Shown one piece after another: positions 2,283 through 63,957 of a stretch of DNA of 64,000 bases. The DNA comes from an uncultured Verrucomicrobiae bacterium (GTDB taxonomy: Bacteria > Verrucomicrobiota > Verrucomicrobiia > Chthoniobacterales > Terrimicrobiaceae), in assembly GCA_963706955.1 (NCBI GenBank), contig CAVPOC010000003.1:352001-416000 (forward strand), given 5' to 3'. A program made the position numbers and the translations under genes. Numbering within the stretch: position 1 is the first letter of the stretch; each line of letters opens with the position of its first letter. Below the pieces are notes generated by a model. That model did no database searches and was not told where the DNA came from. It was given only the letters and a program-made list of their open reading frames with translations.

Positions 2283-3266
2283 CTAGAATCGCTCCTCCTG
2301 CAATCCGCGATGTTCGCGATAGGCATGAACAATCGCCTGAACCAACCGATGGCGGACGACGTCGGTTTCGTCGAAACATTGGAAGGCGATTCCCTCCACA
2401 TTGCTCAAAGCCTCGACGGCCTCGATGAGCCCGCTGCGCTTGCTCCGCGGCAGGTCGATCTGGGTTCGATCCCCCGTGACCACGCACTTGGAATCCTGAC
2501 CGAGCCGGGTCAAGAACATAAACATCTGCTCGGTAGTCGTATTTTGTGCTTCATCCAGAATAACAAACGCCTGGCTGAGCGTTCGCCCGCGCATATAGGC
2601 CAGCGGGGCGATCTCGATAACTCCGCGATCCATATACTTCTGAATCTCCTCTACCTCAAGCATATCGTAAAGCGCATCATAGAGCGGACGTAGATAAGGG
2701 AGAATTTTCTCCTGAAGATCGCCTGGCAAGAAACCGAGCGCCTCACCTGCCTCGACGGCCGGGCGAGTTAGTATGATGCGATCGACTTTTTCCTGCTTCA
2801 GCGCGGAAACGGCCAAGGCCACCGCGAGGTAGGTCTTCCCTGTTCCAGCGGGGCCAATCCCGAAGGTGATGTCTCGTGACTGCATCGCGAGGATGTAGGC
2901 CTTTTGGCCGTCGGTCTTCGGAACGATCGAAGGCTTTCGCGGGGAGGTTTGGATGCGCAGGTCAAGAAGCCGTCCTAACTCTGTGCCGCCATTTCTCCCG
3001 GCCGCATGCATGGCATAGCTAAACTCGGGCCTGCGGATGACTACGCCGCGTTTGCGCGCCTCATCCAACTGCTCGAAGACCTTACGCGCCTTGCTGACAC
3101 CATCCTCACCACCCTCGATGCGTAGCCAACCATCGCGCGAGGTGACGCGCACGTCGAGCGCCGCTTCCAACTCGCGCAGAAGCTTGTCGTCCCCACCGTA
3201 GAGTGCCTGGACAGCACGGGCGTTATCGAACTCGAGGGTGAGCGTTTCCAGATTACCTGTAGCCAT
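2283..3266 (-). CDS. phoH: PhoH-family ATPase
   Basis: GPAGTGKT Walker A, LTRPAVEAGE, LGFLPG, RGRTL, DEAQN, DVVRH motifs. Confidence 0.95.
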   Translation of the reverse strand: MATGNLETLTLEFDNARAVQALYGGDDKLLRELEAALDVRVTSRDGWLRIEGGEDGVSKARKVFEQLDEARKRGVVIRRPEFSYAMHAAGRNGGTELGRLLDLRIQTSPRKPSIVPKTDGQKAYILAMQSRDITFGIGPAGTGKTYLAVALAVSALKQEKVDRIILTRPAVEAGEALGFLPGDLQEKILPYLRPLYDALYDMLEVEEIQKYMDRGVIEIAPLAYMRGRTLSQAFVILDEAQNTTTEQMFMFLTRLGQDSKCVVTGDRTQIDLPRSKRSGLIEAVEALSNVEGIAFQCFDETDVVRHRLVQAIVHAYREHRGLQEERF

Positions 3267-3684
3267 AGACGAGCGCCCAGTTGGAGCGCTCTTGAGGCGA
3301 CTTCTCCACGGTGACGATAGCGTAATAGGCCCCCGTTTTAGCTGGAGTGACTTTGGCCGCCGCGAAGCGGCCCTTTTGCCAGAATTCGGATTCTGCTAGC
3401 TTGCCGTCGGAGTCGTAAACATGCACCGTGATCACTGCTCCGCGGGTGTCGGTGGCCAGCCAGAACCAATATTCGTTGCCCCTAAACAATTGGGCCGTCA
3501 CGGCCTGCTGGTCCTTGACTCCAAGATCGCCGCCCCACGCGTCCTCGCGGATAGTAAATCCTTGCTTGGCGTAGGGTGCGGCAGCCTCCTTGGCGAACGA
3601 AAGAGCATCGTTCACCGTTGCCACAGCCATGGGAATAGCCACGGCGAGTGCAAGCGGAACCAGAAGAGCTAATCTGGGCTTCAC
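3253..3684 (-). CDS. Hypothetical exported beta-rich protein
   Basis: Signal-peptide-like N-terminus (MKPRLALLVPLALAVAIPMAVA); overlaps the phoH start; co-oriented in the operon. Confidence 0.7.
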   Translation of the reverse strand: MKPRLALLVPLALAVAIPMAVATVNDALSFAKEAAAPYAKQGFTIREDAWGGDLGVKDQQAVTAQLFRGNEYWFWLATDTRGAVITVHVYDSDGKLAESEFWQKGRFAAAKVTPAKTGAYYAIVTVEKSPQERSNWALVYGYR

Positions 3685-3691
3685 GACGGAC

Positions 3692-4504
3692 TCAGGCCTC
3701 CTCGGAGGTGATTACGACGACGACCTCATTGGTCATCTTATTGATTTTCTCAACGCTCGCCTGCGAGATGCCGCCCTTGCCGATCAGCGGTCGGATGTCG
3801 CGAAGAAGTTTCCGAACGCGCCCAACAAGATCCTCTTTCTTCAAACGCGAGCTGCGCATCTCGTCAATTCGCCGCGTGAAGTAGTTGAGCAACTCGGGCT
3901 GGTTCAGGAGCTCTGCTCCGGTCGCGGAGTAATTCTTGCCGACAATTGAGGTGAGCACCTCCGTTCCGCGAATCCACCCGCCGATGCTCACGAGTTGAGC
4001 GAGGTCCGCATCCCCAAGCTCCACCATCGCGGAGCGAACGTCTTGCAAGGCGCCGTCGAGTTCGTCGCGCACCGATCGCCAGTTTTTCGAATCGGCCTTG
4101 TCCATAATGCTCTTGCTGCGGGCCAGCACGGCTTTGCGCACGTTGATTGCGTCGGCGAGGTTCAGCACTTCCTGGCCGATCTGTTTCACACTTTCCGAAT
4201 TCTCAGCTTCGACGGCGATGAACCCGTCCGCGATCACTGTTCCCAGCAGAAGCGCCACCTGGGCACGGTTTCCAGTGTTCTTACCGAGATTGTCCCGCAT
4301 CTCGGCCTTCCAGTTCGGCGATCCTAACTTGTCGAGGACGTTGAAGATCTCGCTTGGGACTGGCACGACCACCTCATCAACGGCCGCAGCTGGGAATTTC
4401 GAGAGGTCAATTGACGCGGGAGGAGTGGCTGCCGAAGTGGTTTGCCCCAATGAACTCACTAAGGTGAGACCATAAGATAGGAGGAAGAGGAGGCGTGACA
4501 GCAT
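3692..4504 (-). CDS. Hypothetical exported alpha-helical protein
   Basis: 270-aa ORF with signal-peptide-like N-terminus; 7 bp from the next gene; first gene of the phoH operon. Confidence 0.75.
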   Translation of the reverse strand: MLSRLLFLLSYGLTLVSSLGQTTSAATPPASIDLSKFPAAAVDEVVVPVPSEIFNVLDKLGSPNWKAEMRDNLGKNTGNRAQVALLLGTVIADGFIAVEAENSESVKQIGQEVLNLADAINVRKAVLARSKSIMDKADSKNWRSVRDELDGALQDVRSAMVELGDADLAQLVSIGGWIRGTEVLTSIVGKNYSATGAELLNQPELLNYFTRRIDEMRSSRLKKEDLVGRVRKLLRDIRPLIGKGGISQASVEKINKMTNEVVVVITSEEA

Positions 4505-4561
4505 GAGAAATTAAGCTTCGCGTTGGAGCCGCAGCCCCGTTAAAAGCGCCGGCATCATTAG

Positions 4562-5572
4562 ATGAAAGTTGAAAGAATACAATACCTTCTTGACGAGGCA
4601 CGCAAGCAACGGTTGCTGGTCATCGGGGACGTCATGTTAGACGAATTCGTCTGGGGAAAGGTCTCTCGTATTTCTCCAGAGGCACCGGTGCCGGTCGTGG
4701 AGGTCCAGAGCGAGTCGTTCTATCCCGGTGGTGCGGCGAATGTTGCGCGAAATCTCCGGCCGTTCTGCAACGCCGTCCAAATAAGCGGCATGGTGGGTCC
4801 GGATGCTGCGGCCGGCCGGCTGAGGAGTCTTCTGCACGACGAAGGCATCGCCACCGAGGCGCTTGTCGAGTCTGCCGAAATCCCGACTATCGTGAAAACG
4901 CGAATTATCGCGCGCCAACAGCAAGTTGTGCGGGTGGATCGGGAGCGTCGTTTAGGTGCGCCGAAACCTGTCCACGAGTCAGTGCTTCGGCGGCTCGAAT
5001 CGTTGCTCCCGCAGGTCGAAGGAGTGATCTTTGAGGATTACGGCAAAGGATTTCTCACTCAGGATTTCGTTGATCAAGTTGGCGCGATGATCGCAAAAAC
5101 CGGCAAGGTCTTTACCGCAGATCCGAACCCCGGCAACCCGCTGCGGTGGACGGGCGTAACAACGATTAAGCCCAATCGTGCCGAGGCATTCGCCATGGCA
5201 GGAATGGTAGACCCGGGAGCGTCTGACAGTCCGCTTGAGGACAGCGCATTACTCCAAGCCGGGGCGGCTCTTCTCGAGAAGTTTGGCATTCGTTCGGTGC
5301 TGGTTACTTTGAGCGAGCACGGGATGATCTTGTTCGACCGTGAAGGCCCGCCGTATTACACCCCGACCCGCGCCAAGGAGGTATTCGACGTATCAGGCGC
5401 CGGCGACACGGCCATTGCCCTTTTCACCCTGGCGCTCTGCGCGGGAGGCACCCTGCAGGAAGCAGCTGAGATTTCCAACCATGGCTCCGCCGTCGTGGTT
5501 GGCAAATTTGGAACGGCCACCCTCACGCCGGATGAACTCCTGGCCAGCTTCAAGAAAAACCACTTCTTCTAG
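4562..5572 (+). CDS. hldA: D-glycero-beta-D-manno-heptose-7-phosphate kinase (HldE kinase domain / RfaE1)
   Basis: GDVMLD, RISPEAPVPV, GGAANVARN, DYGKG and DVSGAGDT PfkB-type motifs; next to gmhB. Confidence 0.92.
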   Translation: MKVERIQYLLDEARKQRLLVIGDVMLDEFVWGKVSRISPEAPVPVVEVQSESFYPGGAANVARNLRPFCNAVQISGMVGPDAAAGRLRSLLHDEGIATEALVESAEIPTIVKTRIIARQQQVVRVDRERRLGAPKPVHESVLRRLESLLPQVEGVIFEDYGKGFLTQDFVDQVGAMIAKTGKVFTADPNPGNPLRWTGVTTIKPNRAEAFAMAGMVDPGASDSPLEDSALLQAGAALLEKFGIRSVLVTLSEHGMILFDREGPPYYTPTRAKEVFDVSGAGDTAIALFTLALCAGGTLQEAAEISNHGSAVVVGKFGTATLTPDELLASFKKNHFF

Positions 5573-5578
5573 CCGCTA

Positions 5579-6124
5579 ATGAATCGAGGCGAACATCTCC
5601 ACGAAAATCGAGCCGTCTTCCTCGATCGAGATGGCACGCTCATGGAGGAAATGCACTTCTCCGCGGATCTCTCCAAGGTGCACGCAATACCCGGTGCCGG
5701 CGAAAGTCTCGCCAGCCTCCGCCGCAACGGCTGGCTCAATGTAATGATCACCAACCAAAGCGGCATCGCTCGTGGATTTTTCACCGTCAAGGAATATGAA
5801 GCGGTCAATGCGGAGCTTTTCCGACAGCTCGGCGGCGAGATGGATGCAATCTACTTTTGTCCGGACCACCCTGCAAACGCGACCGCTCGTCGGAAACCTG
5901 GCATCGGGATGCTCGAGGAAGCTAAGCGCGATCATCAGATCGCACTGGAGAAATCATGGTTCATCGGCGACAAGGACACCGATATTCTTTGCGGCCGAAA
6001 GGCTGGCTGCAAAACGATCCTCGTCTTGACTGGCTACGGCAAGGACCACCGAAATTGTTCTCCGCATTTCATTGCGAAGGACATCGTCGAGGCGGCCCGT
6101 ATCGTTCTTGCCGAAAAAACGTGA
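5579..6124 (+). CDS. gmhB: D,D-heptose 1,7-bisphosphate phosphatase (HAD IIIA)
   Basis: FLDRDGT, TNQSGI, RKPGIGM and IGD..TDI motifs. Confidence 0.9.
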   Translation: MNRGEHLHENRAVFLDRDGTLMEEMHFSADLSKVHAIPGAGESLASLRRNGWLNVMITNQSGIARGFFTVKEYEAVNAELFRQLGGEMDAIYFCPDHPANATARRKPGIGMLEEAKRDHQIALEKSWFIGDKDTDILCGRKAGCKTILVLTGYGKDHRNCSPHFIAKDIVEAARIVLAEKT

Positions 6125-6873
6125 AGGCCGCCGCGATCATCCCGGCGCGCTGGGCGTCGACACGGTTTCCCGGGAAGCCACTCTTCCCCATTCTTGGCAA
6201 GCCACTTCTCCAGCATGTTTGGGAGCGCTGCCAGACCGCGAAAGGTCTTTCCGAGGTGATCGTCGCCACCGATGACATGCGCATTGCCGAAGCTGCTTTC
6301 GCCTTTGGAGCAGCAGTCTCTTTGACCTCGTCCAAACATCAGAGCGGGACCGATCGAGTTGCCGAGGTGGCTGCGCGGCTGCGCGGTTTCCGGCACATCA
6401 TCAACGTTCAGGGTGATGAGCCGGCCGTCGAACCCCGCCTCATCGACCGGCTCGTTCACGTTCTTCAAAACGACCCCACCTTGGAAATGGTCACCGCCGC
6501 CAGCCCGTTTGAGAATGAGGCTGAAGCCGCCAATCCGAACAATGTCAAGGTGGTCACTGCGCGCGATGGCCAGGCTCTATATTTTTCGCGGAGTCGCATC
6601 CCGTTCAAACGGGACGAATCTGGTTCGGCGGCCTCGCCACCGCTCTGGCACATCGGGATCTACGGATATCGTCGCGATTTTCTCGCGCGATTCGTTCAAT
6701 GGAAACCAACTCCGCTCGAGCGCATCGAAAAGCTCGAGCAACTCCGCGCCCTCGAACAAGGTGCCGCCATTCATGTCATCCTCACCCGTCATCGGGCGCT
6801 GGGTGTCGACACGCCGGAAGACGTGGCCCGCGCCGAGGCCGCCCTCGCAAGCCGCCGCGTGACGACTTCCTGA
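6121..6873 (+). CDS. kdsB: 3-deoxy-manno-octulosonate cytidylyltransferase
   Basis: IIPARWASTRFPGKPL, SGTDR, NVQGDEP and EKLEQLRALE motifs; GTG start overlaps the gmhB stop (GTGA). Confidence 0.95.
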   Translation: MKAAAIIPARWASTRFPGKPLFPILGKPLLQHVWERCQTAKGLSEVIVATDDMRIAEAAFAFGAAVSLTSSKHQSGTDRVAEVAARLRGFRHIINVQGDEPAVEPRLIDRLVHVLQNDPTLEMVTAASPFENEAEAANPNNVKVVTARDGQALYFSRSRIPFKRDESGSAASPPLWHIGIYGYRRDFLARFVQWKPTPLERIEKLEQLRALEQGAAIHVILTRHRALGVDTPEDVARAEAALASRRVTTS

Positions 6874-6997
6874 AAATCAGTTAAATCGAGCCGCTGATAA
6901 GCTGCTTTTTGGCCGGCGCTGCGACATTTTTCTGCGCCCGCCCGCTAGGCAGTTCCCTCCCTTGCCAATTCGCGACCCTGCCATAAACTCCCCGCAC

Positions 6998-8599
6998 ATG
7001 AAATACATTTTCGTGACTGGCGGGGTGGTGAGCTCCTTGGGTAAAGGACTTGCCGCGGCCTCGCTGGGCACGTTGCTCGAGCGGCGCGGCCTCAAGGTCG
7101 TCTTACAAAAGCTCGACCCGTATCTGAATGTCGATCCAGGCACGATGAACCCCTTCCAACATGGTGAAGTCTATGTGCTGGCCGATGGAGCAGAGACCGA
7201 TCTTGATCTTGGACACTACGAGCGTTTCACAAATTGCGTGCTCACGCGGGCCAACAACGTCACCAGTGGCCAGGTCTACGAAACCGTTCTCGCGAACGAG
7301 CGCCGTGGTGATTATCTCGGCAAGACCGTCCAGGTAATTCCTCACATCACCGATGAAATCAAGAATCGGATCCGCGCGATCGAGGCATCCTCCGAAGCCG
7401 ATGTCCTCATCACGGAAATAGGCGGAACCACCGGTGACATTGAAGGATTGCCGTTTCTGGAGGCCATTCGACAATTTCAGCTCGAGGCTGGGGTCGGCAA
7501 CGTGCTCGTCATGCACGTGACATTGATTCCGTTCATCAAGGCCGCCGGCGAACTCAAGACCAAGCCGACTCAACAAAGCGTCGCCAAGCTCCGGGAGATC
7601 GGCCTGCAGCCGCAAGTGATCCTTTGCCGCACCGAGATGCCGATCGACGCGGAAGTTCGGCAGAAACTGTCTCTCTATTGCAACGTCCCGATCGAAGCGG
7701 TCATCGAAGCAGGTGATGTTGAGAATACCATCTACGAAGCGCCCCTCAACTTGCAGGCCGAAGGGCTCGATGAATACGTTTGCCGGATCTTGAATCTCCA
7801 AGCCAGCGAGCCGGACATGAGCGATTGGCGAAAATTCGTCGAACGCGTCGTCAATCCGAAGAAAAGCGTCCGGATTGCTGTGGTGGGCAAGTACATTGAA
7901 CTTCAGGATGCCTATAAGAGCATCTATGAATCGCTCACGCACGCCGGAGCCGCCCACGATTGTGCGACGAACCTGGTGCTCGTCGATGCTGAAGATCTGG
8001 GAAAAGAAGGCGCCGACAAATATCTGCGCGGAGTGGCCGGGGTGCTCGTGCCAGGAGGATTTGGGGACCGGGGAGTAGAAGGCAAAATCGATGCAGCCCG
8101 CTACGCTCGCGAATCGCGCACACCCTATCTTGGTCTCTGTCTGGGAATGCAAACCGCCACCATCGAATTTGCGCGCCACGTCTGCGGGCTGGAAAATGCC
8201 AACAGTACCGAATTCGATCCGGAGACCCCCCATCCGGTCATCTGTATCCTCGAGGATCAAAGAGACGTCACCAGAAAGGGAGCTTCCATGCGGTTGGGAA
8301 CCTGTCCGACCATGCTCGGCAAAAACACGCTTGCTCACCAAGTCTACGGGCGCGCGGAAATCCTCGAACGGCACCGGCACCGCTATGAATTCAACATGGA
8401 ATACCGCGACATCATGGAAAAAAGGGGCTTCATCATTTCGGGCACTTCTCCGGACGGGGCCCTAGTCGAACTGATCGAGCTCCAGAGCCATCCCTGGTTC
8501 CTTGCCTGTCAGTTCCACCCAGAATTTCAATCGAAGCCGAACGCTCCCCACCCGCTCTTCAAGGGCCTCATCGCCGCATGCCTCGCACATCAGGACTGA
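6998..8599 (+). CDS. pyrG: CTP synthase
   Basis: MKYIFVTGGVVSSLGKG, DPYLNVDPGTM, GLCLGMQ, ERHRHRYE and QFHPEF motifs. Confidence 0.98.
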   Translation: MKYIFVTGGVVSSLGKGLAAASLGTLLERRGLKVVLQKLDPYLNVDPGTMNPFQHGEVYVLADGAETDLDLGHYERFTNCVLTRANNVTSGQVYETVLANERRGDYLGKTVQVIPHITDEIKNRIRAIEASSEADVLITEIGGTTGDIEGLPFLEAIRQFQLEAGVGNVLVMHVTLIPFIKAAGELKTKPTQQSVAKLREIGLQPQVILCRTEMPIDAEVRQKLSLYCNVPIEAVIEAGDVENTIYEAPLNLQAEGLDEYVCRILNLQASEPDMSDWRKFVERVVNPKKSVRIAVVGKYIELQDAYKSIYESLTHAGAAHDCATNLVLVDAEDLGKEGADKYLRGVAGVLVPGGFGDRGVEGKIDAARYARESRTPYLGLCLGMQTATIEFARHVCGLENANSTEFDPETPHPVICILEDQRDVTRKGASMRLGTCPTMLGKNTLAHQVYGRAEILERHRHRYEFNMEYRDIMEKRGFIISGTSPDGALVELIELQSHPWFLACQFHPEFQSKPNAPHPLFKGLIAACLAHQD

Positions 8600-53051: not shown

Positions 53052-54017
53052 ATGGCTGATCAGCGTCAACCACGTCGAGTGAATCGAAGGTTGCGCAGCA
53101 ATTTGACGCGCGCCAATCTGCTCGATGTCCGCATGCGCACGGTGACCGCGCGTCGCCGGCGCCGAGCCATAATCTTTCGTTGGGTCACCAATGTTTTTCT
53201 GGTTGGAGCGGTCGGCGCCGGCTCGTTTTTCGGCCTACAGGCGGCCCTCGACAAGTTCTTCTTCAAGAATCCGGAATACACCTTGCGGCGAATTTCCTTC
53301 GAGCTCGACGAAATTCTCACCCGGGACGAGGCTCTCGCCGTGACCGGCCTTCGCGAAGGCGTAAATATCTTCTCGGTCGATTTCGCAAGAGTTGAGGCCG
53401 CGCTGCGCGAGATTCCGCAGGTGCAGGATGTTCGCCTCGCGCGCAAGCTTCCGGACCAGATCGACGTCAGCATTACGGCGCGGCGGCCGATCGCGTGGGT
53501 AGCGGCGCCGGGCGAGACGGGAGATCCTTCCGCCTCGGAGAAATCGCTCCTCGTCGACGCGGGCGGCTTCCTGATGCGGCCACGCCACATCATGCCCGAG
53601 TATTTCCATCTCCCCGCCATCTACGGTGCGAAGAGCGACAACGTGCGTGATGGAGAACCGCTCCCAGGCGAGGACTTGCGCCTGGCCGTTCGTTTGATCG
53701 AAACAGTTGCTCGGCATCCGAACTCGCTCTTGCACATTCGGGCGATCGACGTATCGCGAGGCTATTGTCTCGAAGTGGTCAATGACTCGAATGCACGTAT
53801 TTTATTTGGCACAGGCGACTTTGAAGAGCAGCTTGCCCGCTTGCAACAACTCCTCGCCCATTGCAACGAAACCGGACGATCTCTTGAAAAAGTCAATTTG
53901 ATGGTGAAGCGCAACACCCCGGTGAACTTTGTCGCAGTGTCAAATCCATTGCCGGAGGATCCCGTGGCTATTCCGGCTCCATCGGCGCAACCAACCCCGA
54001 AGACGCGGAGAAACTGA
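53052..54017 (+). CDS. ftsQ: Cell division protein FtsQ/DivIB
   Basis: Basic cytoplasmic N-terminus, TM helix and POTRA-like region (NIFSVD...IPQV...RKLPD); located between ddl and ftsA. Confidence 0.85.
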   Translation: MADQRQPRRVNRRLRSNLTRANLLDVRMRTVTARRRRRAIIFRWVTNVFLVGAVGAGSFFGLQAALDKFFFKNPEYTLRRISFELDEILTRDEALAVTGLREGVNIFSVDFARVEAALREIPQVQDVRLARKLPDQIDVSITARRPIAWVAAPGETGDPSASEKSLLVDAGGFLMRPRHIMPEYFHLPAIYGAKSDNVRDGEPLPGEDLRLAVRLIETVARHPNSLLHIRAIDVSRGYCLEVVNDSNARILFGTGDFEEQLARLQQLLAHCNETGRSLEKVNLMVKRNTPVNFVAVSNPLPEDPVAIPAPSAQPTPKTRRN

Positions 54018-55237
54018 TGGCTCGACCCGATATTCTCGTGGGGGTGGAGGTGGGAACGTCAAAGGTCTGCGTCGTCGTCGGCGAGATCGGGCGCGAAGGC
54101 ACACTCCGAATTCTTGGCGTCGGCCTGGCTCCGTCGCGCGGTGTGCGCAAAGGGGAAATTGTTGACCTGGCGATCGCTACCGAATGCGTGCATGATGCCC
54201 TGGCCGATGCCGAAACCAACAGCGACGCCGAGATCGGCAGCGTCTTCGTCGCCACCACCGGCAGCCATATTCGCAGCTTCAACAGCCGTGGCGCTATCCT
54301 CATTGCCTCGGACCGCTACGAGATCGACGATGGAGACGTCCAGGAAGTCGCGGTAAAGGCGCGTGAGGTAAACATTCCGACCGAAAATCACTTCCTTCAC
54401 TCCATCATCCAACATTACTACGTCGATGGACAAGAGGGCGTATTGAACCCGATCGGGATGGTTGGCAGGAAGCTGGAGGCCGACTTTCATATCATTCATG
54501 GCGTGCGGACTCGCATGCAAAACACGCTGCGCTGCATCCGTGAGAGTGGCGTCGAGATCGACGAGATCGTTGTCAATTCTCTCGCCTCTGCCCAAGCCGT
54601 GCTCGATGAACATCAAAAAGAGCTCGGCGCCGTCGTCATCGACGTAGGCGGCGGAGTCACCGACTACATCGTTTACGAAACCGGTGTCGTCCGCCACAGC
54701 GGGGTGCTGGCCGTGGGTGGCGACCACATCAGCAATGACATTTCTTTAGGGCTGCGGATTCCGCTCACCCGGGCGGAAAAGCTCAAGGTCGACGAGGGCT
54801 CGGCAAAACTTGGAACTTCCACTCCGGGAGAGAAAATCACCCTCAAGAATGACGCTGGGTTCGCTGGCAAGGAAGTTGAGCGTGAGATGCTCAATACGAT
54901 CATCCATGCGCGCCTGCGCGAAAACTTCGAGCTCATAAAAAAGCAAATCGAACCGGAGGTCTCCATGCGCATGCTCGGCGGTGGCGTGGTCCTTACCGGG
55001 GGATGTAGCCTGATGCGCGGCATCAAGGAAGTCGCCGAATCCGTTTTCGAGCTGCCGGTGCACCTGGCACGCGACACCGGCGTCTCCGGACCGAAGTCGG
55101 TGCTCAACAATCCGCAATATTCCACCTCGATCGGCCTCATCAAATTCGCGCAAGCGCTCCGCGCCGAAGTAGAAAGGCCCGGTCTGATCGGCTCGGTTCT
55201 GGAAAAAATCGGCGGTATTTTCCGGAAGAGAGGCTGA
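54017..55237 (+). CDS. ftsA: Cell division protein FtsA
   Basis: EVGTSKV, GVRKG, IDVGGGVTD, GGDHISNDI, AEKLK and VLTGG motifs; C-terminal amphipathic helix. Confidence 0.95.
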   Translation: MARPDILVGVEVGTSKVCVVVGEIGREGTLRILGVGLAPSRGVRKGEIVDLAIATECVHDALADAETNSDAEIGSVFVATTGSHIRSFNSRGAILIASDRYEIDDGDVQEVAVKAREVNIPTENHFLHSIIQHYYVDGQEGVLNPIGMVGRKLEADFHIIHGVRTRMQNTLRCIRESGVEIDEIVVNSLASAQAVLDEHQKELGAVVIDVGGGVTDYIVYETGVVRHSGVLAVGGDHISNDISLGLRIPLTRAEKLKVDEGSAKLGTSTPGEKITLKNDAGFAGKEVEREMLNTIIHARLRENFELIKKQIEPEVSMRMLGGGVVLTGGCSLMRGIKEVAESVFELPVHLARDTGVSGPKSVLNNPQYSTSIGLIKFAQALRAEVERPGLIGSVLEKIGGIFRKRG

Positions 55238-55396
55238 AGGAAAATGTCTGCCTTCCAGATGGAATGATCGAATCGACCACCGTCATGGAAGCGCTCTTGG
55301 CCCATCAAAATTTTGTTTCAACCGCCGTTTGTTTTTCCCTGCGCCGCGCAAGTTTGCTAGCCTGCTTTCCCGTCGACTCGACCAACTTCTAAAGTC

Positions 55397-56719
55397 ATGA
55401 TTTCTTATCCAAGGTCTGATACTGCCTCTGAAGGCATCGAACCCCCGACTGTCCGCATCATCGGGCTTGGAAACGCCGGAACACATTTAGCGGACCGTCT
55501 GCAAATGAACGGCCATGCTGATGTGGTGGTGATGAACACTGACGCGCAGTCGTTGCAATCATCCATCGCCTTCAAGAAGACGCCCGTCGGTCAGATGACG
55601 ACGCGAGGGCTGGGCACCGGCGGTGATCCGGAGATTGGTTATGAGGCGGCCCTTGAATCGCGTGATGCCATTCGTTCGACGGTCGAAGGCACGAACATTG
55701 TTTTCCTTTGTGCCGGGCTTGGCGGAGGCACTGCCTCCGGCGTGATTCCAGTTCTCGCGGAGGCGGCTCGCGAGGCCGGAGCGGTGGTCTTCTCGATTGT
55801 GACTTCGCCCTTCAGCTTTGAGGGTCGCCGCCGCTCCAGGCAGGCTGGCGATGCGATGGCGCTTTTGTCTAAGCAATCAAACGCGCTGATCCATTTCGAG
55901 AATGACCGCATGGCTGAACTTTCCTCGCCTCGCTCGGGCATTGAAGAGACGTTTGCTGCTTCCGACGCGATGCTCTGCGCCTGCGTCACTTCGCTGATCG
56001 CTATCCTGCGGGGCGGAAATCCGATGCCCATTGGACTCGCTGATCTGCTGGTCGCCGTCGGGGGCGGTTCACCCGCAGGCTTATTTGGACGCGGCGAGGC
56101 GACGGGGGATAATCGCGCGCATGAAGCCCTCGAACGCGCTCTAAAGAGCCCCTTGCTCGATCGCGGACGGTTGATCGGAGACTGCCATGCCGTCATTGCG
56201 CACCTCGTTGGTCCGACTTCGCTTTCCTTCTCGGAGGTCGCCGCCGTCATGCGCGAGGTAAGACGGCACACCGCAGATGAGGCTAAGCTTTTCCTGGGCG
56301 TCACCACCGTCAGTGATCCTTCAGCCCAGCTCAGCGTCACTCTCTTTGGCAACTATTCTTCGCCACCGGTGGTCGAGTCCGCGCAACCTCAGGCTGCAGC
56401 TAGCGGCGTCGCCGGGGCCGTGCCAAGCACGGCTGCGATTCCCGCTGGGACTGCCGCGGCCGGAGAAGTTGCCGGTTCGCCGCCCGAGGCTCCCGCAGCG
56501 GCCCCGGTCTCGGCCGACGCGCAGACGCCGGGAGAAGAGTCCGACAGCTCGGACGACCCCTCTAAGGCCAAGGCAGGCTCGAAAACGAAGCCAGCCAAAC
56601 AGGAGACTTTGCAGTTTGAATCTACCACTCGCGGACGCTTCGACAAAAGCGAGCCCACCATCGTCGAAGGCGAAGACCTGGACGTCCCGACTTTTCTGCG
56701 CATGCGCAAGCCTAATTAG
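55397..56719 (+). CDS. ftsZ: Cell division protein FtsZ (divergent)
   Basis: NTDAQSL, TRGLGTGGDPEIG, GLGGGTASG and PFSFEGRRR motifs; C-terminal DLDVPTFLR core peptide; follows ftsA. Confidence 0.92.
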   Translation: MISYPRSDTASEGIEPPTVRIIGLGNAGTHLADRLQMNGHADVVVMNTDAQSLQSSIAFKKTPVGQMTTRGLGTGGDPEIGYEAALESRDAIRSTVEGTNIVFLCAGLGGGTASGVIPVLAEAAREAGAVVFSIVTSPFSFEGRRRSRQAGDAMALLSKQSNALIHFENDRMAELSSPRSGIEETFAASDAMLCACVTSLIAILRGGNPMPIGLADLLVAVGGGSPAGLFGRGEATGDNRAHEALERALKSPLLDRGRLIGDCHAVIAHLVGPTSLSFSEVAAVMREVRRHTADEAKLFLGVTTVSDPSAQLSVTLFGNYSSPPVVESAQPQAAASGVAGAVPSTAAIPAGTAAAGEVAGSPPEAPAAAPVSADAQTPGEESDSSDDPSKAKAGSKTKPAKQETLQFESTTRGRFDKSEPTIVEGEDLDVPTFLRMRKPN

Positions 56720-57293: not shown

Positions 57294-57340
57294 GCGCACG
57301 TCATTTGTAAAAACCGTATTCTACAGTAAAGCGATTTCGT

Positions 57341-57395
57341 TGTAGCGACCGTGTCCCCACGGTCGAGGGTCCCCGGCGGTGGGGACACCGCCGCT
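57341..57395. repeat. REP/REPIN-like inverted doublet, family A (copy 4)
   Basis: TGTAGCGACCGTGTCCCCACGGTCG ... CGGCGGTGGGGACACCGCCGCT between convergent genes. Confidence 0.75.
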
Positions 57396-57507
57396 GATCG
57401 CTCGCTCTCCGAAAGTTAGCTTCATAAGCGGGATTTCGCTCGGAGCTTGAGACAAGCGTCCAGACAATTGTTTCATCGATTGTCGGCTGCGAATTTTCTT
57501 CTGCTAT

Positions 57508-57858
57508 CTAGTGTTTCTTACGCGTGAGCATGAATTCGTTGCCCTCGGTATCTGCGCACATGGCTAGGTGAGGCGGCTCTCCTGCGGCATCAGACATCGG
57601 TTCTCTGAGGAGCTGACCACCCGCTGCGACCACTTCGCGCGCTCCCGCAACGACATCCGCGACTTGAAAGCTTAGCCCGGTCCAGGTCCGCTCTCCCTCT
57701 CCGCCGGCGTGGATTCCAATGGTCGCCCCGGCAATCTCCAGCTCGCTGAGGACGTCGCTCTGACGAAGGACGTTCGCGTTGAATGCAGTCCGATAAAAGC
57801 TGACCGCGCGCGGCGTTTCTGCCGCCCAGAGAATGTACTTTGTCCGCTCTACATCCAT
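57508..57858 (-). CDS. VOC (glyoxalase/bleomycin-resistance) family protein
   Basis: RAVSFYRTAF, LSFQVADV, AAGGQLLREP and ADTEGNEFML motifs. Confidence 0.85.
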   Translation of the reverse strand: MDVERTKYILWAAETPRAVSFYRTAFNANVLRQSDVLSELEIAGATIGIHAGGEGERTWTGLSFQVADVVAGAREVVAAGGQLLREPMSDAAGEPPHLAMCADTEGNEFMLTRKKH

Positions 57859-57908
57859 GCAGTAGCGATACACAATGAGCTGATGCGGTGAAAGGAAAAC
57901 GGTCTGCT

Positions 57909-58769
57909 TCACGCCAAGAGCAGATCGGTGCGATCAGCACGCCCGATTTGATCATGCCAAGCGAGAAGCGGCTCGATTTCCGGATGAATTTGCCCGGATC
58001 CGACGCGCTCCAGCAAGCGAACAACCGAGTAGTCCCGAATCCTCCTGAGGTATTCGCTCTCCCAAACCTCGAACCTTTTCTCGGTTTTGGCATCCAGAAA
58101 CGGCCAGCGTTCACTCGGCACGTGGTGGCCACAACGCCACGGCTTGGGCGTCAAGCGCGCGCGGAATGATTTTTGACTACGACACAGGCGAAGGTAGAGC
58201 GGATCGCTCCCAACGAAGTCGAGAGTTCGCGCCGCCTCGTCGGAGCAAGGGTCGATTTTCCGATGTGCCAGAATTACCCTTAACCCGCCCGCGGTCTCAT
58301 AAATAAAGGCGAGGCCGGCAGGTTCACCGCCGATCACCTCCACTACTTTTCGAAGGACGGAACTCGCGGACAGGTCTTTGCCGCGTCTTGTTTCTGCCGA
58401 TTTCCGGTTCCGAGTGAAGAAGCTCTGCAGAATCCCTGCGCGCGGCTCTTCCGCTTCAGTTGGGGGATGATCGACGTCGGCAATGAACATCCGCGCCGCA
58501 TTGAGGACGACGCACCCATAGCTGTTGCGCGTGATCGCTCCAGTTGGTTCCCCTGAGGTTGAACTCGCCATCACCTGCAAGACCGGCTCCCGCATCGGAC
58601 GATCGGGATAGCCGTAACGCTGGAGTGCCTCCCCTGACTGAAAGCGCTCTGCAAGGACGCGCGCCCGCTCCTGCGCACGTTCACAAGCGTCTTCGCTGCT
58701 TTGATCCGAGAAGCCCCAGCAAATAAATCCATCGTGCGCTCCGCGCTGCCAGAATTTTGGAAAATACAT
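57909..58769 (-). CDS. Hypothetical protein (possible AEP/primase-like fold)
   Basis: 286-aa ORF with protein-like composition; motifs FIADVD, YETAGGLRV, DPLY and FRARLTPKPWR. Confidence 0.75.
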   Translation of the reverse strand: MYFPKFWQRGAHDGFICWGFSDQSSEDACERAQERARVLAERFQSGEALQRYGYPDRPMREPVLQVMASSTSGEPTGAITRNSYGCVVLNAARMFIADVDHPPTEAEEPRAGILQSFFTRNRKSAETRRGKDLSASSVLRKVVEVIGGEPAGLAFIYETAGGLRVILAHRKIDPCSDEAARTLDFVGSDPLYLRLCRSQKSFRARLTPKPWRCGHHVPSERWPFLDAKTEKRFEVWESEYLRRIRDYSVVRLLERVGSGQIHPEIEPLLAWHDQIGRADRTDLLLA

Positions 58770-58847
58770 GGGACCTGACTAGCGCATCGACTCGGTTCGT
58801 CCAAGCTGTCGAAATCCGCCGGCTGCCGTCGACGTGAAGCTTGAACG

Positions 58848-59096
58848 ATGATTTCCATCCATACGACCGACCCGGCGAATACACAGACGTTGGTGGCGAT
58901 CGCCGGGACTGGTTTTGGACAGGGGGCCAAGCTCGATCAGCAAAATACTATCTGGCAAGGCGAAAAGGCCTGGGCTCAGCTTTCGCAAAATCCCGGCACC
59001 GGCGAAGGAACGCTCTTCATCGGCGATTGCGAGTTAAGCCGCCAATTGGGCGAATACGAGCAGCGCGCCGCGGCGGAGGCGGCCGCGCAACTCTAA
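58848..59096 (+). CDS. Small hypothetical protein upstream of the RiPP precursor
   Basis: 82-aa ORF with plausible composition; its TAA overlaps the precursor ATG (TAATG). No family recognised. Confidence 0.45.
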   Translation: MISIHTTDPANTQTLVAIAGTGFGQGAKLDQQNTIWQGEKAWAQLSQNPGTGEGTLFIGDCELSRQLGEYEQRAAAEAAAQL

Positions 59097-59470
59097 TGGA
59101 CCAAAGCATGAAGAACACGTCGCTCACAAAGTCACTTCCCGCGTTGCTTGCACTCACCGGCGGAGCGATGCTCGCGACCAGCGAAAAGACCGAAGCCGCG
59201 AACACCACCGGCCAAAGCACATCACACCTCGACGCACTGGAAGTCCGTATCAAGAATGTCCAGGAAAAACTTGCCAACCAGCAGCCTGGCCTCTCCTTTG
59301 ACGAGCGGACCTCCGAGGACGGTCTCACTACATTCTGGTGGGGCAATTGGCGCAACGGCGGATGGGGTCCGGGAATGTGGCACAATTGGGGCAACGGAGG
59401 CTGGCGCAACTGGGGCAATGGCTGGGGCAACGGTGGCTGGCACAATTGGCACAATTGGGGTAACTGGTAA
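59096..59470 (+). CDS. RiPP precursor peptide, GrrA/OscA-like (triceptide), with ten W-x-N motifs
   Basis: Signal-like N-terminus and leader, then the core FWWGNWRNGGWGPGMWHNWGNGGWRNWGNGWGNGGWHNWHNWGNW; directly upstream of a radical SAM gene. Alternative ATG at 59108. Confidence 0.88.
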   Translation: MDQSMKNTSLTKSLPALLALTGGAMLATSEKTEAANTTGQSTSHLDALEVRIKNVQEKLANQQPGLSFDERTSEDGLTTFWWGNWRNGGWGPGMWHNWGNGGWRNWGNGWGNGGWHNWHNWGNW

Positions 59471-59516
59471 GCCCCTCTCGAACCTCCCTGAAGGTTGTCA
59501 GGAGAGCGCGAATCCG

Positions 59517-60680
59517 CTGGAAGCAAACGGCGGATTCTTCAAGTCGTCGGAAATCGAACCGTGGGCGACGCTCCTGGTCCTCCAAGCCTCACCGTTCTGC
59601 AACATCAACTGCGACTATTGTTACCTACCGAATCGGACATCGACGCGCCGCATGAGCATGCCGGTCCTCGCATCGGCGATCGAGAAAACCTACGCGTCCG
59701 ACCTGGTTCGGGGCGAATTGACGATCATCTGGCATGCTGGGGAACCATTGGCAGTGCCTATCGCGTGGTACGAAGAAGCACTCGCAACCATATCGCTGAC
59801 CGCTCCGAGTGGGGCGAACATCGTTCATTCCATTCAGTCCAACGGCACCTTGCTGAACCAAGCATGGTGCGACTTTATCCGGAGCCATGACATTCGTATG
59901 GGCCTCAGTATCGACGGTCCGGATTTTCTTCACGATGTGCACCGCAAGACCAGGCGGGGCGACGGCAGCCACCGCTTGGCCATGCGCGGTCTGCAACTGC
60001 TGAAGGACAACGACATCCCCTTCCACGTCATCGCCGTGATTACCGGCGAGGCCCTTGGTTACGCCCAGGAGATCTACGACTTCTTCGAGGCCGCGGGTGT
60101 CGAGCGTCTGGGCTTCAATATCGAAGAAGTTGAGGCGGAGCACGGCGTTTCCACTCTTGGCTCCGGACACGAAGAAAGTGTGCGCGAGTTCTATCAGACC
60201 ATCTTCGAAAATCAGAAAAGACGCCGAAGCATCACCATTCGTGAATTCGCGGCAGCAGAGCAAAAGATCCGCTCGGGCATCTCTCTGCGGGAATTTGATT
60301 TCCCGTGGTTCAATGAACAGGTGCGTCCATTTGGGATCATCAGTGTCGATTGGCAGGGAAATTTTTCCACGTACTCGCCGGAGCTTCTTGGGATGTCGCT
60401 CGAGCCCTACGGTGAGTTCTCTTTTGGGAACGTCCTCCGCGACCATTTCGCGGATGCGCTGGAAACTCCAAAGTTCCGCCAGGTGCTGGTGGACATTCAG
60501 ACCGGGATCAAACGATGCGCCGAGACTTGCCCATATTACGGATACTGCGGAGCAGGCGCCCCGGCGAATAAGTATTATGAGAATGGCTCGTTTGCGTCCA
60601 CACAGACCCTCTATTGCCGCTATTCGGTGCAAATGCCGCTCGATGTCGTCTTGAATGATATGGAGACGGCTTTGAGCTAA
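59517..60680 (+). CDS. GrrM/OscB-like cyclophane-forming radical SAM/SPASM peptide maturase
   Basis: LQASPFCNINCDYCYLP (CxxxCxxC), WHAGEPL, QSNGTL, SIDGP, FNIEE, FSTYSPEL and C-terminal CAETCPYYGYCGAGAPANK...TLYC. Start uncertain (CTG 59517, or ATG 59418 inside the precursor). Confidence 0.9.
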   Translation: MEANGGFFKSSEIEPWATLLVLQASPFCNINCDYCYLPNRTSTRRMSMPVLASAIEKTYASDLVRGELTIIWHAGEPLAVPIAWYEEALATISLTAPSGANIVHSIQSNGTLLNQAWCDFIRSHDIRMGLSIDGPDFLHDVHRKTRRGDGSHRLAMRGLQLLKDNDIPFHVIAVITGEALGYAQEIYDFFEAAGVERLGFNIEEVEAEHGVSTLGSGHEESVREFYQTIFENQKRRRSITIREFAAAEQKIRSGISLREFDFPWFNEQVRPFGIISVDWQGNFSTYSPELLGMSLEPYGEFSFGNVLRDHFADALETPKFRQVLVDIQTGIKRCAETCPYYGYCGAGAPANKYYENGSFASTQTLYCRYSVQMPLDVVLNDMETALS

Positions 60681-60780
60681 GCCACCTGAGGCAGGTTGCG
60701 GAAAACCGACGAGCAGGCTGCTCTATCAGGCGCTTTTGCCTCGTTGCCCTTCGACAACATGTTAAATTAGGGAGCGTCGT

Positions 60781-63348
60781 ATGAGTCCTGAAAAATTCAC
60801 TGCCAAGATGCAAGAGGCCTTCAACGCCTCTCTGGACCTGGCCTCAAAAGCGAATCATTCTGAAATTTCCACCGAGCACTTTCTGCTGGCTCTGCTCAGG
60901 CAAGGGGATGGTCTCGCTCGGCCGCTGCTCGAGGGTTTGGGAATAAATCCGACTCAACTCGAAAAGCAGCTCGAAGCCGAGCTCTCCCGACGCGCAACCG
61001 TGCACGGCGGCGCGTCCCCGCACCTGGGCGCAGATCTTCGCAAGACGATCGATGCCGCGGAGGGCGAGATGTCCAAGCTTAAGGACGAATTTCTCAGCGC
61101 CGAACACTTCCTGCTCGCGGTGCTGAACTCTGGAACTCCTGCGGCGGCGATGCTCAAGAATGCAGGCATCAACCCGCAGAAGCTCATGCAGAGCTTGCAG
61201 AGCATCCGCGGCAACCAGCGCGTGACCGATCAGGACCCAGAAGGCAAATACCAGACTTTGGAAAAGTATGGCCGCGATCTCACCGAGCTAGCTCGTAAGG
61301 GAAAGATCGATCCGGTGATCGGCCGCGACAATGAAATCCGACGGACCATGCAGGTCCTCTCCCGTCGGACCAAAAACAACCCAGTCCTCATCGGGGAGCC
61401 AGGCGTTGGCAAGACTGCCATCGTCGAGGGACTCGCCCGACGCATTGTCGCCGGCGACGTGCCCGAATCCCTCAAGAACAAACGCATCATCGCGATGGAC
61501 ATCGGCGCCATGATCGCCGGCGCCAAGTTCCGCGGCGAGTTCGAGGACAGGCTGAAGGCCTTCCTGAAAGAGGTGACCGCCTCTGGGGGCAAGATCATCC
61601 TCTTTATCGACGAGCTCCATACCATCGTCGGCGCGGGCGCAGCCGAAGGTTCCGCGGATGCTTCAAATATGCTCAAACCCCAGCTCGCTCGCGGCGAACT
61701 GCACACCATCGGCGCCACCACGCTCGACGAATATCGCAAATACATCGAAAAGGACGCTGCCCTCGAGCGACGCTTCCAACCAGTCATGGTCGAGGAGCCA
61801 AGCGTGGAGGATACCATCGCCATCCTGCGCGGCCTCAAGGAACGTTATGAAGTGCATCATGGCGTTCGCATCCAGGATGCCGCTCTGATCGCGGCCGCCA
61901 CGCTCTCCCATCGCTACATCAGCGATCGATTTCTGCCAGACAAGGCCGTCGACCTCGTCGACGAAGCTGCCTCGCGCTTAAAGATCGAACTTGATTCGAT
62001 GCCCACCGAGATCGACCAGCTCGAACGCCAGATCATGCAACTCGAGATGGAAAAACAGGCGCTCAAGAAAGAACGGGACAACGCTAGCAAGGAGCGTCTC
62101 TCCAAGCTGGAGAAGGAGCTCGCCGATCTCAAAGAGCAGTCGAGCCGGCTCAAGGCGCAATGGCAGAAAGAAAAAGAGGAAATTACCAAATCGCAGAAAT
62201 TCGGCGAACAAATCGATCAGCTCAGAACCGAACTCGAGCAGGCGCAAAGAAGAGGAGATCTCCACCGCGCTTCGGAAATCCAATATGGGAAAATCCCGGA
62301 GCTGCAAAAGGAGCTGGATGACTTGAAAAGCAAGGAAACGGCCGGCAGCCATATCCTCCTCAAAGAGGAAGTCACCGAAGAGGACATTGCCAAGGTCGTC
62401 TCCAGCTGGACTGGCATTCCCGTGTCCCGCCTCCAGGAAGGCGAACGCCACAAGCTCGTCAAAATGGAAGAAAGGCTGATGGAGCGTGTCGTCGGCCAGG
62501 AACGGGCCATTCGCGCCGTCTCCAACGCGGTCCGCCGTGCCCGGGCGGGACTACAAGACGAAAATCGTCCGATCGGTTCCTTCATGTTCCTTGGACCGAC
62601 CGGGGTCGGAAAAACGGAACTCTCCAAGGCATTGGCCGAATTTCTCTTCGATGACGAGCGGGCCATGATCCGAATCGATATGAGCGAGTACATGGAGAAA
62701 CACACCGTGGCGCGACTCATCGGCGCACCCCCAGGCTATGTTGGCTACGAAGAGGGCGGGCAACTTAGCGAAGCCGTTCGTCGCCGACCCTATTCTGTCG
62801 TGCTCTTCGACGAGATCGAAAAAGCGCATCACGACGTCTTCAATGTCTTGCTCCAGGTGCTTGATGATGGGCGAATCACCGACGGCCAAGGCCGAACCGT
62901 TGATTTCAAGAATACGGTGATCATCATGACCTCAAACATCGGCAGCCAATATATCATGGAAGACCTCCCGAAGGAGGAGCGGGACCGCCGCGTCACCGAA
63001 GCGTTGCGAGCACATTTCCGTCCCGAGTTCCTCAATCGGATCGATGAGATCATCATCTTCGACCGTCTGGATGATCGACAGATCACCAAGATCGTCGACT
63101 TCCAACTCAAGCGGCTCCTTCAGCGCCTCGGTGATAGAAAGATCAGCTTGGAGCTCTCCGATGACGCCAAACGATTCCTGGTCAAGGAGGGTTATGATCC
63201 CGCTTACGGTGCCCGCCCCCTCAGGCGTGTCATCCAAAGAGAAATCCTCGACCCGCTAAGTCTGGAGATCCTCGACGGCAAGTTTCAGGAGGGAGATCGG
63301 ATCAACGTCCACGCCGCCGACGGCCATCTCACCTTCAAGAAGACTTGA
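60781..63348 (+). CDS. clpB: ATP-dependent chaperone ClpB
   Basis: Clp N-domain, GEPGVGKT (NBD1), long coiled-coil M-domain, GPTGVGKT (NBD2), GAPPGYVGY and GARPLRR motifs. Confidence 0.97.
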
Positions 63349-63397
63349 TTTCGGCAGAAACGCACCACCGTTTTCTGCCAAACTTTCCCAACTTTTT

Positions 63398-63428
63398 CTC
63401 TTGCTTAGGACTAGCAAGAGTTTATTTT
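63398..63428 (+). terminator. Putative intrinsic terminator after clpB
   Basis: CTCTTGCT-N7-AGCAAGAG stem followed by TTTATTTT; overlaps a possible TTGCTT-N16-TATTTT promoter. Confidence 0.5.
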
Positions 63429-63462
63429 CTCACTTCCCGCACGATTGTCGGGGAACTGGCGG

Positions 63463-63485
63463 AAGCACCTGAGCGTGCTTTTTTT
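63463..63485 (+). terminator. Terminator-like hairpin in the rpsJ leader
   Basis: AAGCAC-CTGAGC-GTGCTT followed by a T tract. Confidence 0.5.
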
Positions 63486-63639
63486 GTCCCCATATTCCGG
63501 CGGAATGCACCGAGACAATGATAGGACCACATCCATGCACGATGGCAGCGCTCCAAAAAGCGGCGGTCCGTCTTTGTCGTCGAAAGCGAATCTCTTAAGA
63601 CTACAAAAAGGGTAAACCCTCAACCGTTCTTTATAAAAA

Positions 63640-63957
63640 ATGTCAACTCCCGCCGGCCAACGCATACGCATCCGCCTGAAGGCCTTTGATTATCGCATCT
63701 TGGATGCTTCGGCCGCCGAGATCGTCGAGACGGCCAAGCGCACCGGCTCGAAGGTAACCGGGCCGATTCCGCTGCCGACCCGCATCGAGAAGTTTACCGT
63801 TAATCGCTCCCCGCACGTCGACAAGAAGGCGATGGATCAATTTGAGATCCGCACGCACAAGCGACTGCTGGATATCGTGGAGCCAACCGCCAAAACCGTT
63901 GATGAACTTCGCAAGCTCAATCTGCCCGCCGGAGTCGACATCACCATCAAGATCTAG
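63640..63957 (+). CDS. rpsJ: 30S ribosomal protein S10
   Basis: [34 protein letters not shown] and LPAGVDI motifs. Confidence 0.98.

Follow-up and report, generated by a model that had tools for sequence, protein, structure and literature searches.

A locus at positions 58,848 to 60,680 of a 64,000-nucleotide (nt) stretch of DNA from an uncultured Verrucomicrobiae bacterium (Terrimicrobiaceae, Chthoniobacterales; contig CAVPOC010000003.1), hereafter the window, raises the question of what an open reading frame (ORF) ending in a run of Trp, Gly and Asn residues makes together with the radical S-adenosylmethionine (SAM) enzyme gene that follows it. Triceptides were first characterised from a cyanobacterium, in the OscA/OscB pair, which is the GrrA/GrrM pair of the GRRM system. 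The original prediction was that the locus is a minimal triceptide locus, with a GrrA/OscA-like precursor and a GrrM/OscB-like radical SAM enzyme, lying as an islet between ftsZ and clpB in a lineage without a characterised example. We consider it about 85% probable that the locus is a triceptide system with a GrrA/OscA1-type precursor, a GrrM/OscB-type radical SAM enzyme and Sec-like export, in which a third gene is truncated and which occupies an old, decaying site.

The precursor frame of grrA (59096..59470) encodes 124 amino acids (aa) from ATG 59096 or 120 aa from ATG 59108. The start codon in relatives corresponds to 59108, and in the closely related locus L038 the frame opens one codon earlier only. 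The core of about 45 residues, almost all of them W, G, N, H and R, that had been described at the end of this 120-124-aa ORF was confirmed. The last 47 residues comprise 14 Gly, 13 Trp, 10 Asn, 3 His, 2 Arg, 2 Thr and one each of Phe, Pro and Met, with W, G, N, H and R accounting for 42 of them, and the stretch contains ten non-overlapping W-x-N motifs (W-G-N, W-R-N and W-H-N). Core columns are near-invariant across 21 sequences. GrrA scores 45 bits against the NCBIfam model TIGR04260 (GrrA/OscA1; cut-off 31, E value 1.4e-11, residues 7-123). Its N-terminus is signal-peptide-like and is followed by a conserved leader helix and then by the W-x-N core. Every one of the 30 related loci retrieved from this order has a W-x-N precursor immediately upstream of its radical SAM gene; in the window, 46 nt separate the end of grrA from codon 59517 of grrM.

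The enzyme GrrM scores 436.4 bits against TIGR04261 (the NCBIfam model of the cyclophane-forming radical SAM/SPASM peptide maturase GrrM/OscB; cut-off 310, E value 7.6e-131) and covers profile positions 1-362 of 363, and a six-frame search of the genome with the same model gave the same outcome. The Pfam Radical_SAM model matches at 58.9 bits (cut-off 29.5). All of the motifs named beforehand are present: in 420-aa numbering, CNINCDYC (the CxxxCxxC motif) at 61-68, WHAGEP at 105, FSTYSPEL at 316, and a C-terminal Cys cluster at 367, 371, 377 and 400. The three Cys of CxxxCxxC are conserved in 31 of 31 sequences, and the eight Cys past the N-terminal extension, including Cys 151, are kept in 31 of 31 aligned relatives. 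Because GrrA and GrrM both pass the curated NCBIfam cut-offs, the pair is, by profile membership, part of the named and characterised triceptide family of OscA/OscB (TIGR04260 and TIGR04261) and not a new system.

Because the remnant of a third conserved gene lies in the cassette, the locus is not minimal, as had been proposed. Position 58848, previously given as the start of the locus, belongs not to the precursor but to a separate 82-aa ORF that the original prediction did not describe, and this ORF is the remnant, truncated at its 5' end. In tblastn searches it has a match in 23 of the 30 related loci, invariably next to the precursor on its upstream side, and what it matches there is the C-terminal portion of a longer reading frame. 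Twenty full-length relatives of 179-202 aa (starts set by hand) align well, and each has a hydrophobic N-terminal segment resembling a signal peptide. This accessory family matched no model in Pfam or NCBIfam, and all 119 database homologues are unnamed or "hypothetical". In the sample of genomes from the order, the accessory profile reaches E ≤ 1e-50 in 35 genomes, all of them among the 48 that are GrrM-positive, and in none of the 353 GrrM-negative genomes (the two sets were compared by hand). The gene is found in 37 of the 48 GrrM-positive genomes, counting the window and G778, where it is cut by a contig end; weak matches (1e-32 to 1e-7) occur in 36 further genomes, all GrrM-negative. The accessory gene is thus strongly linked to the GrrA/GrrM cassette in Chthoniobacterales. 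Among the best 80 of at least 570 relatives of the locus, it lies upstream in 37, of which 36 are Verrucomicrobiota-type loci of the Chthoniobacterales kind and one is from Bryobacterales, and it is absent within the 3 kb fetched at Verrucomicrobiales, Pyrinomonadaceae and cyanobacterial loci. The Bryobacterales locus (L099, Acidobacteriota) is the only one of these 80 outside Verrucomicrobiota with the accessory gene upstream of GrrA/GrrM (E value 3.7e-40); its enzyme groups with Acidoferrales enzymes on a long branch of the tree.

An AlphaFold model of the accessory protein of G677, a genome of the same genus, consists of two beta4-alpha units (predicted local distance difference test score, pLDDT, 88.3; predicted template modelling score, pTM, 0.79). 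Foldseek returned no match in the PDB at E ≤ 0.001, and the language-model atlas returned unnamed clusters only. The top structural match is the double-wing domain of Escherichia coli YdcD (8wj5_A; Z 8.5, root-mean-square deviation 3.6, 111 residues), and the Rhs immunity protein RhsI1 (6xtd_B) matches at Z 6.8; both are in the borderline range, and the common fold says nothing on function. Searches of the literature on YdcD and the double-wing domain found only unrelated papers. A complex prediction of accessory residues 28-179 with precursor residues 30-123 gave a score of 0.02 and a mark of 0.32, which weighs neither way. We tentatively propose that the accessory protein might be an extracytoplasmic partner of the exported cross-linked peptide (a binder, a chaperone or self-protection) and fill the position that belongs to GrrP in cyanobacteria, in which case deletion alleles would be natural knock-outs and the system conditionally dispensable.

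One such allele is in the window. Searching the window with the 179-aa G677 protein (tblastn) recovers residues 99-179 only, at 93% identity, with nothing upstream in any frame, and the accessory profile matches the 82-aa ORF at positions 106-188 of 190 only. What remains in the ORF is the C-terminal 81 residues of a protein about 180-200 aa long, without the signal peptide or the first half of the fold. In blastn comparison with L038, window positions 57509-58806 align with 707-2010 and positions 58854-63656 with 2434-7254. The window has 81 bases (58771-58851) where G677 has 444, and 47 bases where L038 has 423. Judged by these alignments, the difference is a deletion of about 363-376 bp in the window accessory gene. 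The deletion took away part of the intergenic region together with the ribosome-binding region, native start, signal-peptide sequence and first 98 codons of the gene, and ATG 58848 falls at a place that belongs to the intergenic stretch in relatives.

Metagenome contigs bear on both forms of the gene. A contig from run X8 (record 18) bridges the junction, matching 58538-58884 with no mismatch and one single-base gap, and the junction is therefore real outside the assembly, unless X8 is the source run. Other contigs (two from run X6, one from X8 and others from X15, an RNA library) come up to 58852 on the right-hand side and carry codons of the missing part. From the left, one X15 contig and one X6 contig depart from the window sequence at 58852 into intergenic sequence like that of G677. 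Because these contigs show both, the deleted and full-length forms coexist in soils. Contigs of X5 and X8 also join 58551 straight to 58855, skipping 303 bases, which would remove the start of the neighbouring 286-aa ORF and the whole intergenic region; the short-side flanks are 45 and 28 letters, and this may be a deletion variant or a contig artefact.

The genomic site is shared with relatives. The placement of the locus between ftsZ (55397..56719) and clpB (60781..63348) stands, but the description of it as an islet does not, since the cassette occupies the same site in three genera of the family: in G677, and in G537, G610 and G521 from two other genera. Eighteen other genomes of the genus were compared at this site. 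Cassette DNA is present in five (G781, G677 and G796 and, within the reach of their contigs, G792 and G793), only pieces of it are present in another five (G715, G682, G645, G760 and G787), and no cassette remains in eight. The GC content of the locus (57.2%, compared with 57.9% for the window) is unremarkable. The cassette looks ancestral at the ftsZ-clpB site and decaying piecemeal in the genus, not recently inserted. The genus shows every stage of cassette loss at one fixed site, with deleted and full-length accessory forms in soil, and this series is natural material for asking what role the peptide and its partner have.

Several points weigh against the triceptide reading given above. The signal peptide of GrrA was judged by eye and not by a predictor, and the Pfam SPASM model gives GrrM 14.7 bits, under its cut-off of 21.5. 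The position and number of the rings are taken over from OscB by analogy. GrrM is only 44-46% identical to the cyanobacterial members compared with it, L112 and L117, and cyanobacterial rows are far from it on the enzyme tree. No in-frame ATG, GTG or TTG occurs from the grrA stop to the first profile position of grrM. Activity of the pathway in this strain is put in question by the truncated accessory gene, and the cassette of L051, from the same genus, is badly degraded.

The grrM start deserves separate mention. Gene callers choose ATG 59418, which lies inside the grrA core. Codon 59517, a CTG, aligns with ATG in L039, TTG in L040 and CTG in L038, and a GTG is found one codon away from its homologue in L042 and L044. 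On this alignment, 59517 is the probable start. In run X5, a contig that derives from a more divergent strain has 4 letters where the window has 40 bases after the grrA stop and ahead of codon 59517 (59474-59515); the net change is 36 bases, and the replacement ends two bases before the proposed CTG.

The start codon, the truncation and the degraded L051 cassette are also the basis of the alternative that survives best, in which the cassette is a decaying, non-functional relic in the window strain and yields little or no mature peptide. In L051, as in G715, the accessory gene is internally deleted, the precursor is gone and grrM has a 540-nt gap. Given this cassette and the truncated accessory gene, the window strain may have an impaired pathway. 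The lack of a canonical start in grrM, which has CTG at a codon that is ATG or TTG in relatives, fits a relic as well, as do the genomes of the genus that keep remnants only or nothing at the site. However, grrA and grrM are full length, have no stops and keep all conserved Cys. L038 has an intact accessory gene yet carries CTG at the same codon, so the CTG is not peculiar to the deleted form. Silent changes predominate among the metagenome-contig variants of grrA (5 synonymous, 0 non-synonymous) and grrM (15 and 5), with 6 and 2 in the accessory remnant, although some of the contigs may derive from strains whose accessory gene is full length. Contigs of run X15 cover 58591-59089 and none covers grrA or grrM; this missing cover is not evidence, and the library may hold DNA. 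On balance a relic is an unlikely explanation, but one to be taken seriously.

If the triceptide reading is right, the reaction can be sketched by analogy with OscB. GrrM would bind the GrrA leader in the cytoplasm and cleave S-adenosylmethionine at the cluster held by its CxxxCxxC motif. The resulting radical would take a hydrogen from the beta-carbon of Asn (i+2), and this carbon would be joined to the indole (C7) of Trp (i). Up to ten three-residue cyclophanes could form, one for each W-x-N, with 2 Da lost each time, and the modified GrrA would then be exported by Sec. We infer Sec export of modified GrrA because its N-terminus resembles a signal peptide, and an extracytoplasmic role of the accessory protein may likewise be suggested from sequence.

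The chemistry could differ from that of OscB, with a cross-link at another indole carbon or through a C-N or C-O bond in place of the classic Trp-C7/Asn-C-beta triceptide. OscB (IPR026357) makes Trp-C7 to Asn/Asp C-beta links, and ring position varies among related enzymes, as XncB uses Trp C6 (PMC11002830). That variation and the identity of only 44-46% to the cyanobacterial members fetched favor a different link. GrrM nevertheless matches its family over the full length, 126 bits above the GrrM/OscB cut-off, and the W-x-N of its precursor is the substrate motif used by OscB (PMC11002830), which makes a different cross-link improbable. It is very improbable indeed that an unrelated Trp-rich ORF here adjoins an anaerobic sulfatase maturase or some other non-peptide SPASM enzyme: TIGR03942 gives a partial match, but its 156.9 bits are far under the cut-off of 349.45 while the GrrM/OscB model is over its own, the precursor adjoins the enzyme in 30 of 30 related loci, and the GrrM/OscB assignment stands because clustering with sulfatase maturases, which had been named as grounds for rejecting it, was not found.

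Triceptide maturases of this type are distributed beyond the source genome. Of 8000 candidates scored in a protein search with GrrM, 4384 reached E ≤ 1e-20. Among the homologues that carry names, the closest are "GrrM/OscB" proteins of Terrimicrobiaceae (80-82% identity) and a "GRRM system" protein of Spartobacteria bacterium LR76 (71%), and NCBI also gives the label "GRRM system" to a homologue in Verrucomicrobia bacterium LW23. Of 400 further genomes sampled in the order, 47 carry a GrrM that passes the cut-off; the share is 25 of 71 at family level and 4 of 12 at genus level. It was found in none of 400 other genomes sampled evenly over the phylum; because only nine of these were from Chthoniobacterales, and because a Verrucomicrobiales/Akkermansiaceae clade was found later, this zero reflects sampling and rarity and not absence. 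A pattern scan of species genomes based on the enzyme alignment (A3) confirmed the relatives, at least 570, of which the best 80 come from Chthoniobacterales/Terrimicrobiaceae, Verrucomicrobiales/Akkermansiaceae, Acidobacteriota, two cyanobacteria and a few others.

An enzyme tree was built from 78 of these 80 loci and the window by a quick search with midpoint rooting; L081 and L051 were omitted as partial. The window GrrM is sister to that of L038 (91% identity) in a 41-row clade (Shimodaira-Hasegawa-like approximate likelihood ratio test, SH-aLRT, 87), which is nested in a 62-row Verrucomicrobiota clade (SH-aLRT 95). The claim that the lineage has no characterised example agrees with a literature search on triceptides or cyclophanes in Verrucomicrobia, in which no characterised member was found, with primary papers and supplements outside the search. 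The novelty attached to the lineage does not hold, given the frequency of GrrM in the order and the names that homologues already carry at NCBI.

Other W-x-N loci occur in the genus and in the source genome. A second, divergent GrrM type, 43-48% identical to that of the window, is found at other sites in the genus: L003 (G686), L004 (G672) and L005 (G781). The L003 and L004 precursors mix W-x-N with W-x-D and have a His- and Asp-rich tail, and the accessory gene was not found upstream of L003, L004 or L005. The source genome (G000) itself has a second Trp-x-Asn locus, L002, outside the window (contig C5, 57400-60876). Three parts make up this locus: first a 105-aa ORF, whose leader is Tat-like and whose Gly-rich core repeats W-[ILV]-N; next a 280-aa ORF of no family with C-terminal Cys; and last a radical SAM/SPASM gene that is split, apparently by a frameshift, into two overlapping ORFs of 186 aa and 228 aa. 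The best radical SAM maturase model for this gene is TIGR04261, which at 63.4 bits is far under the cut-off.

Features of the cassette are collected in Table 1. Upstream, ftsQ-ftsA-ftsZ occupies 53052..56719 (assigned, like clpB, with Pfam). Six ORFs lie between ftsZ and clpB. The first has an ACT domain, and the second (glyoxalase-like) and third (286 aa) are on the minus strand. After these three come the plus-strand ORFs of the cassette, each of which touches or nearly touches the next. A sigma-70 promoter scan of 58600-60900 found none. Terminator-like sites were at chance level (4 seen, 3.0 expected), the Rfam search gave nothing credible (a single match at E value 0.89), and Tandem Repeats Finder picked up the codon-level W-x-N periodicity only.

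Table 1. Coordinates of cassette features in the window.
Feature	Position	Strand	Basis or remark
Intergenic stretch, shortened	58770..58851	.	Ends at deletion junction 58851/58852; about 370 bp fewer than closest relatives
82-aa ORF, accessory-gene remnant	58848..59096	+	tblastn, alignment A1 of 20 full-length relatives, profile
grrA precursor, 120 aa (124 aa from alternative ATG 59096)	59108..59470	+	TIGR04260
W-x-N core, 47 residues	59327..59467	+	Motif count, composition, column conservation
Putative grrM radical SAM maturase, 387 aa from CTG 59517	59517..60680	+	TIGR04261
grrM, gene-caller reading from ATG 59418, 420 aa	59418..60680	+	Overlaps grrA by 53 nt

Two neighboring features were also recorded. 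The 286-aa ORF (57909-58769, minus strand) is without a Pfam or NCBIfam family, yet it is conserved in G677 and L038. All five of its metagenome-contig variants are protein-changing, one being a stop; three of the five, close to contig ends, could be errors. A GC-rich element of about 56 nt (57339-57396), located between the ACT and glyoxalase-like genes, is multi-copy, with 14 further matches listed in the source genome and many in other genomes of the genus. It would form a long hairpin (-43.1 kcal/mol, z -3.6) and looks like a dispersed palindromic repeat of the repetitive extragenic palindromic (REP) type.

Comparison with known systems places the window pair beside OscA/OscB. XncB/XyeB, MscB/FxsB, YhhB and DarE/DynA belong to the same superfamily and carry out the same type of aromatic-to-C-beta chemistry (PMC11002830; PMC11499958). 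The window GrrM is far under the cut-offs of the models for XyeB (65.8 bits, cut-off 450), FxsB (105.2, 370), YhhB (130, 445), DynA (134.7, 450) and DarE (64, 650). AmcB (NF041718), a radical SAM maturase that forms cyclophanes, is the second-best model, at 304.9 bits over nearly the full length, and membership was rejected because its cut-off is 425. The locus has in common with OscA/OscB a Gly-rich core with aromatic-x-Asn motifs and a precursor directly upstream of the enzyme, and it differs in being verrucomicrobial (Chthoniobacterales). The three-gene GRRM system includes GrrP, a partner resembling periplasmic binding proteins, which the locus lacks, as had been noted beforehand; the best match to TIGR04262 in the whole genome has 39.7 bits against a cut-off of 190 and is on another contig. 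In place of GrrP, relatives have a different secreted protein upstream, the one that is truncated in the window. The triceptide pair itself is therefore ordinary, a named family common in Chthoniobacterales soil bacteria, and the Chthoniobacterales version adds a tightly linked secreted protein of no known family. Because this linked protein appears to be secreted and the precursor is Sec-like, a role for the Trp-stapled peptide in the cell envelope or outside the cell is suggested, as opposed to a small diffusible molecule that is freed from its leader by cleavage in the cytoplasm.

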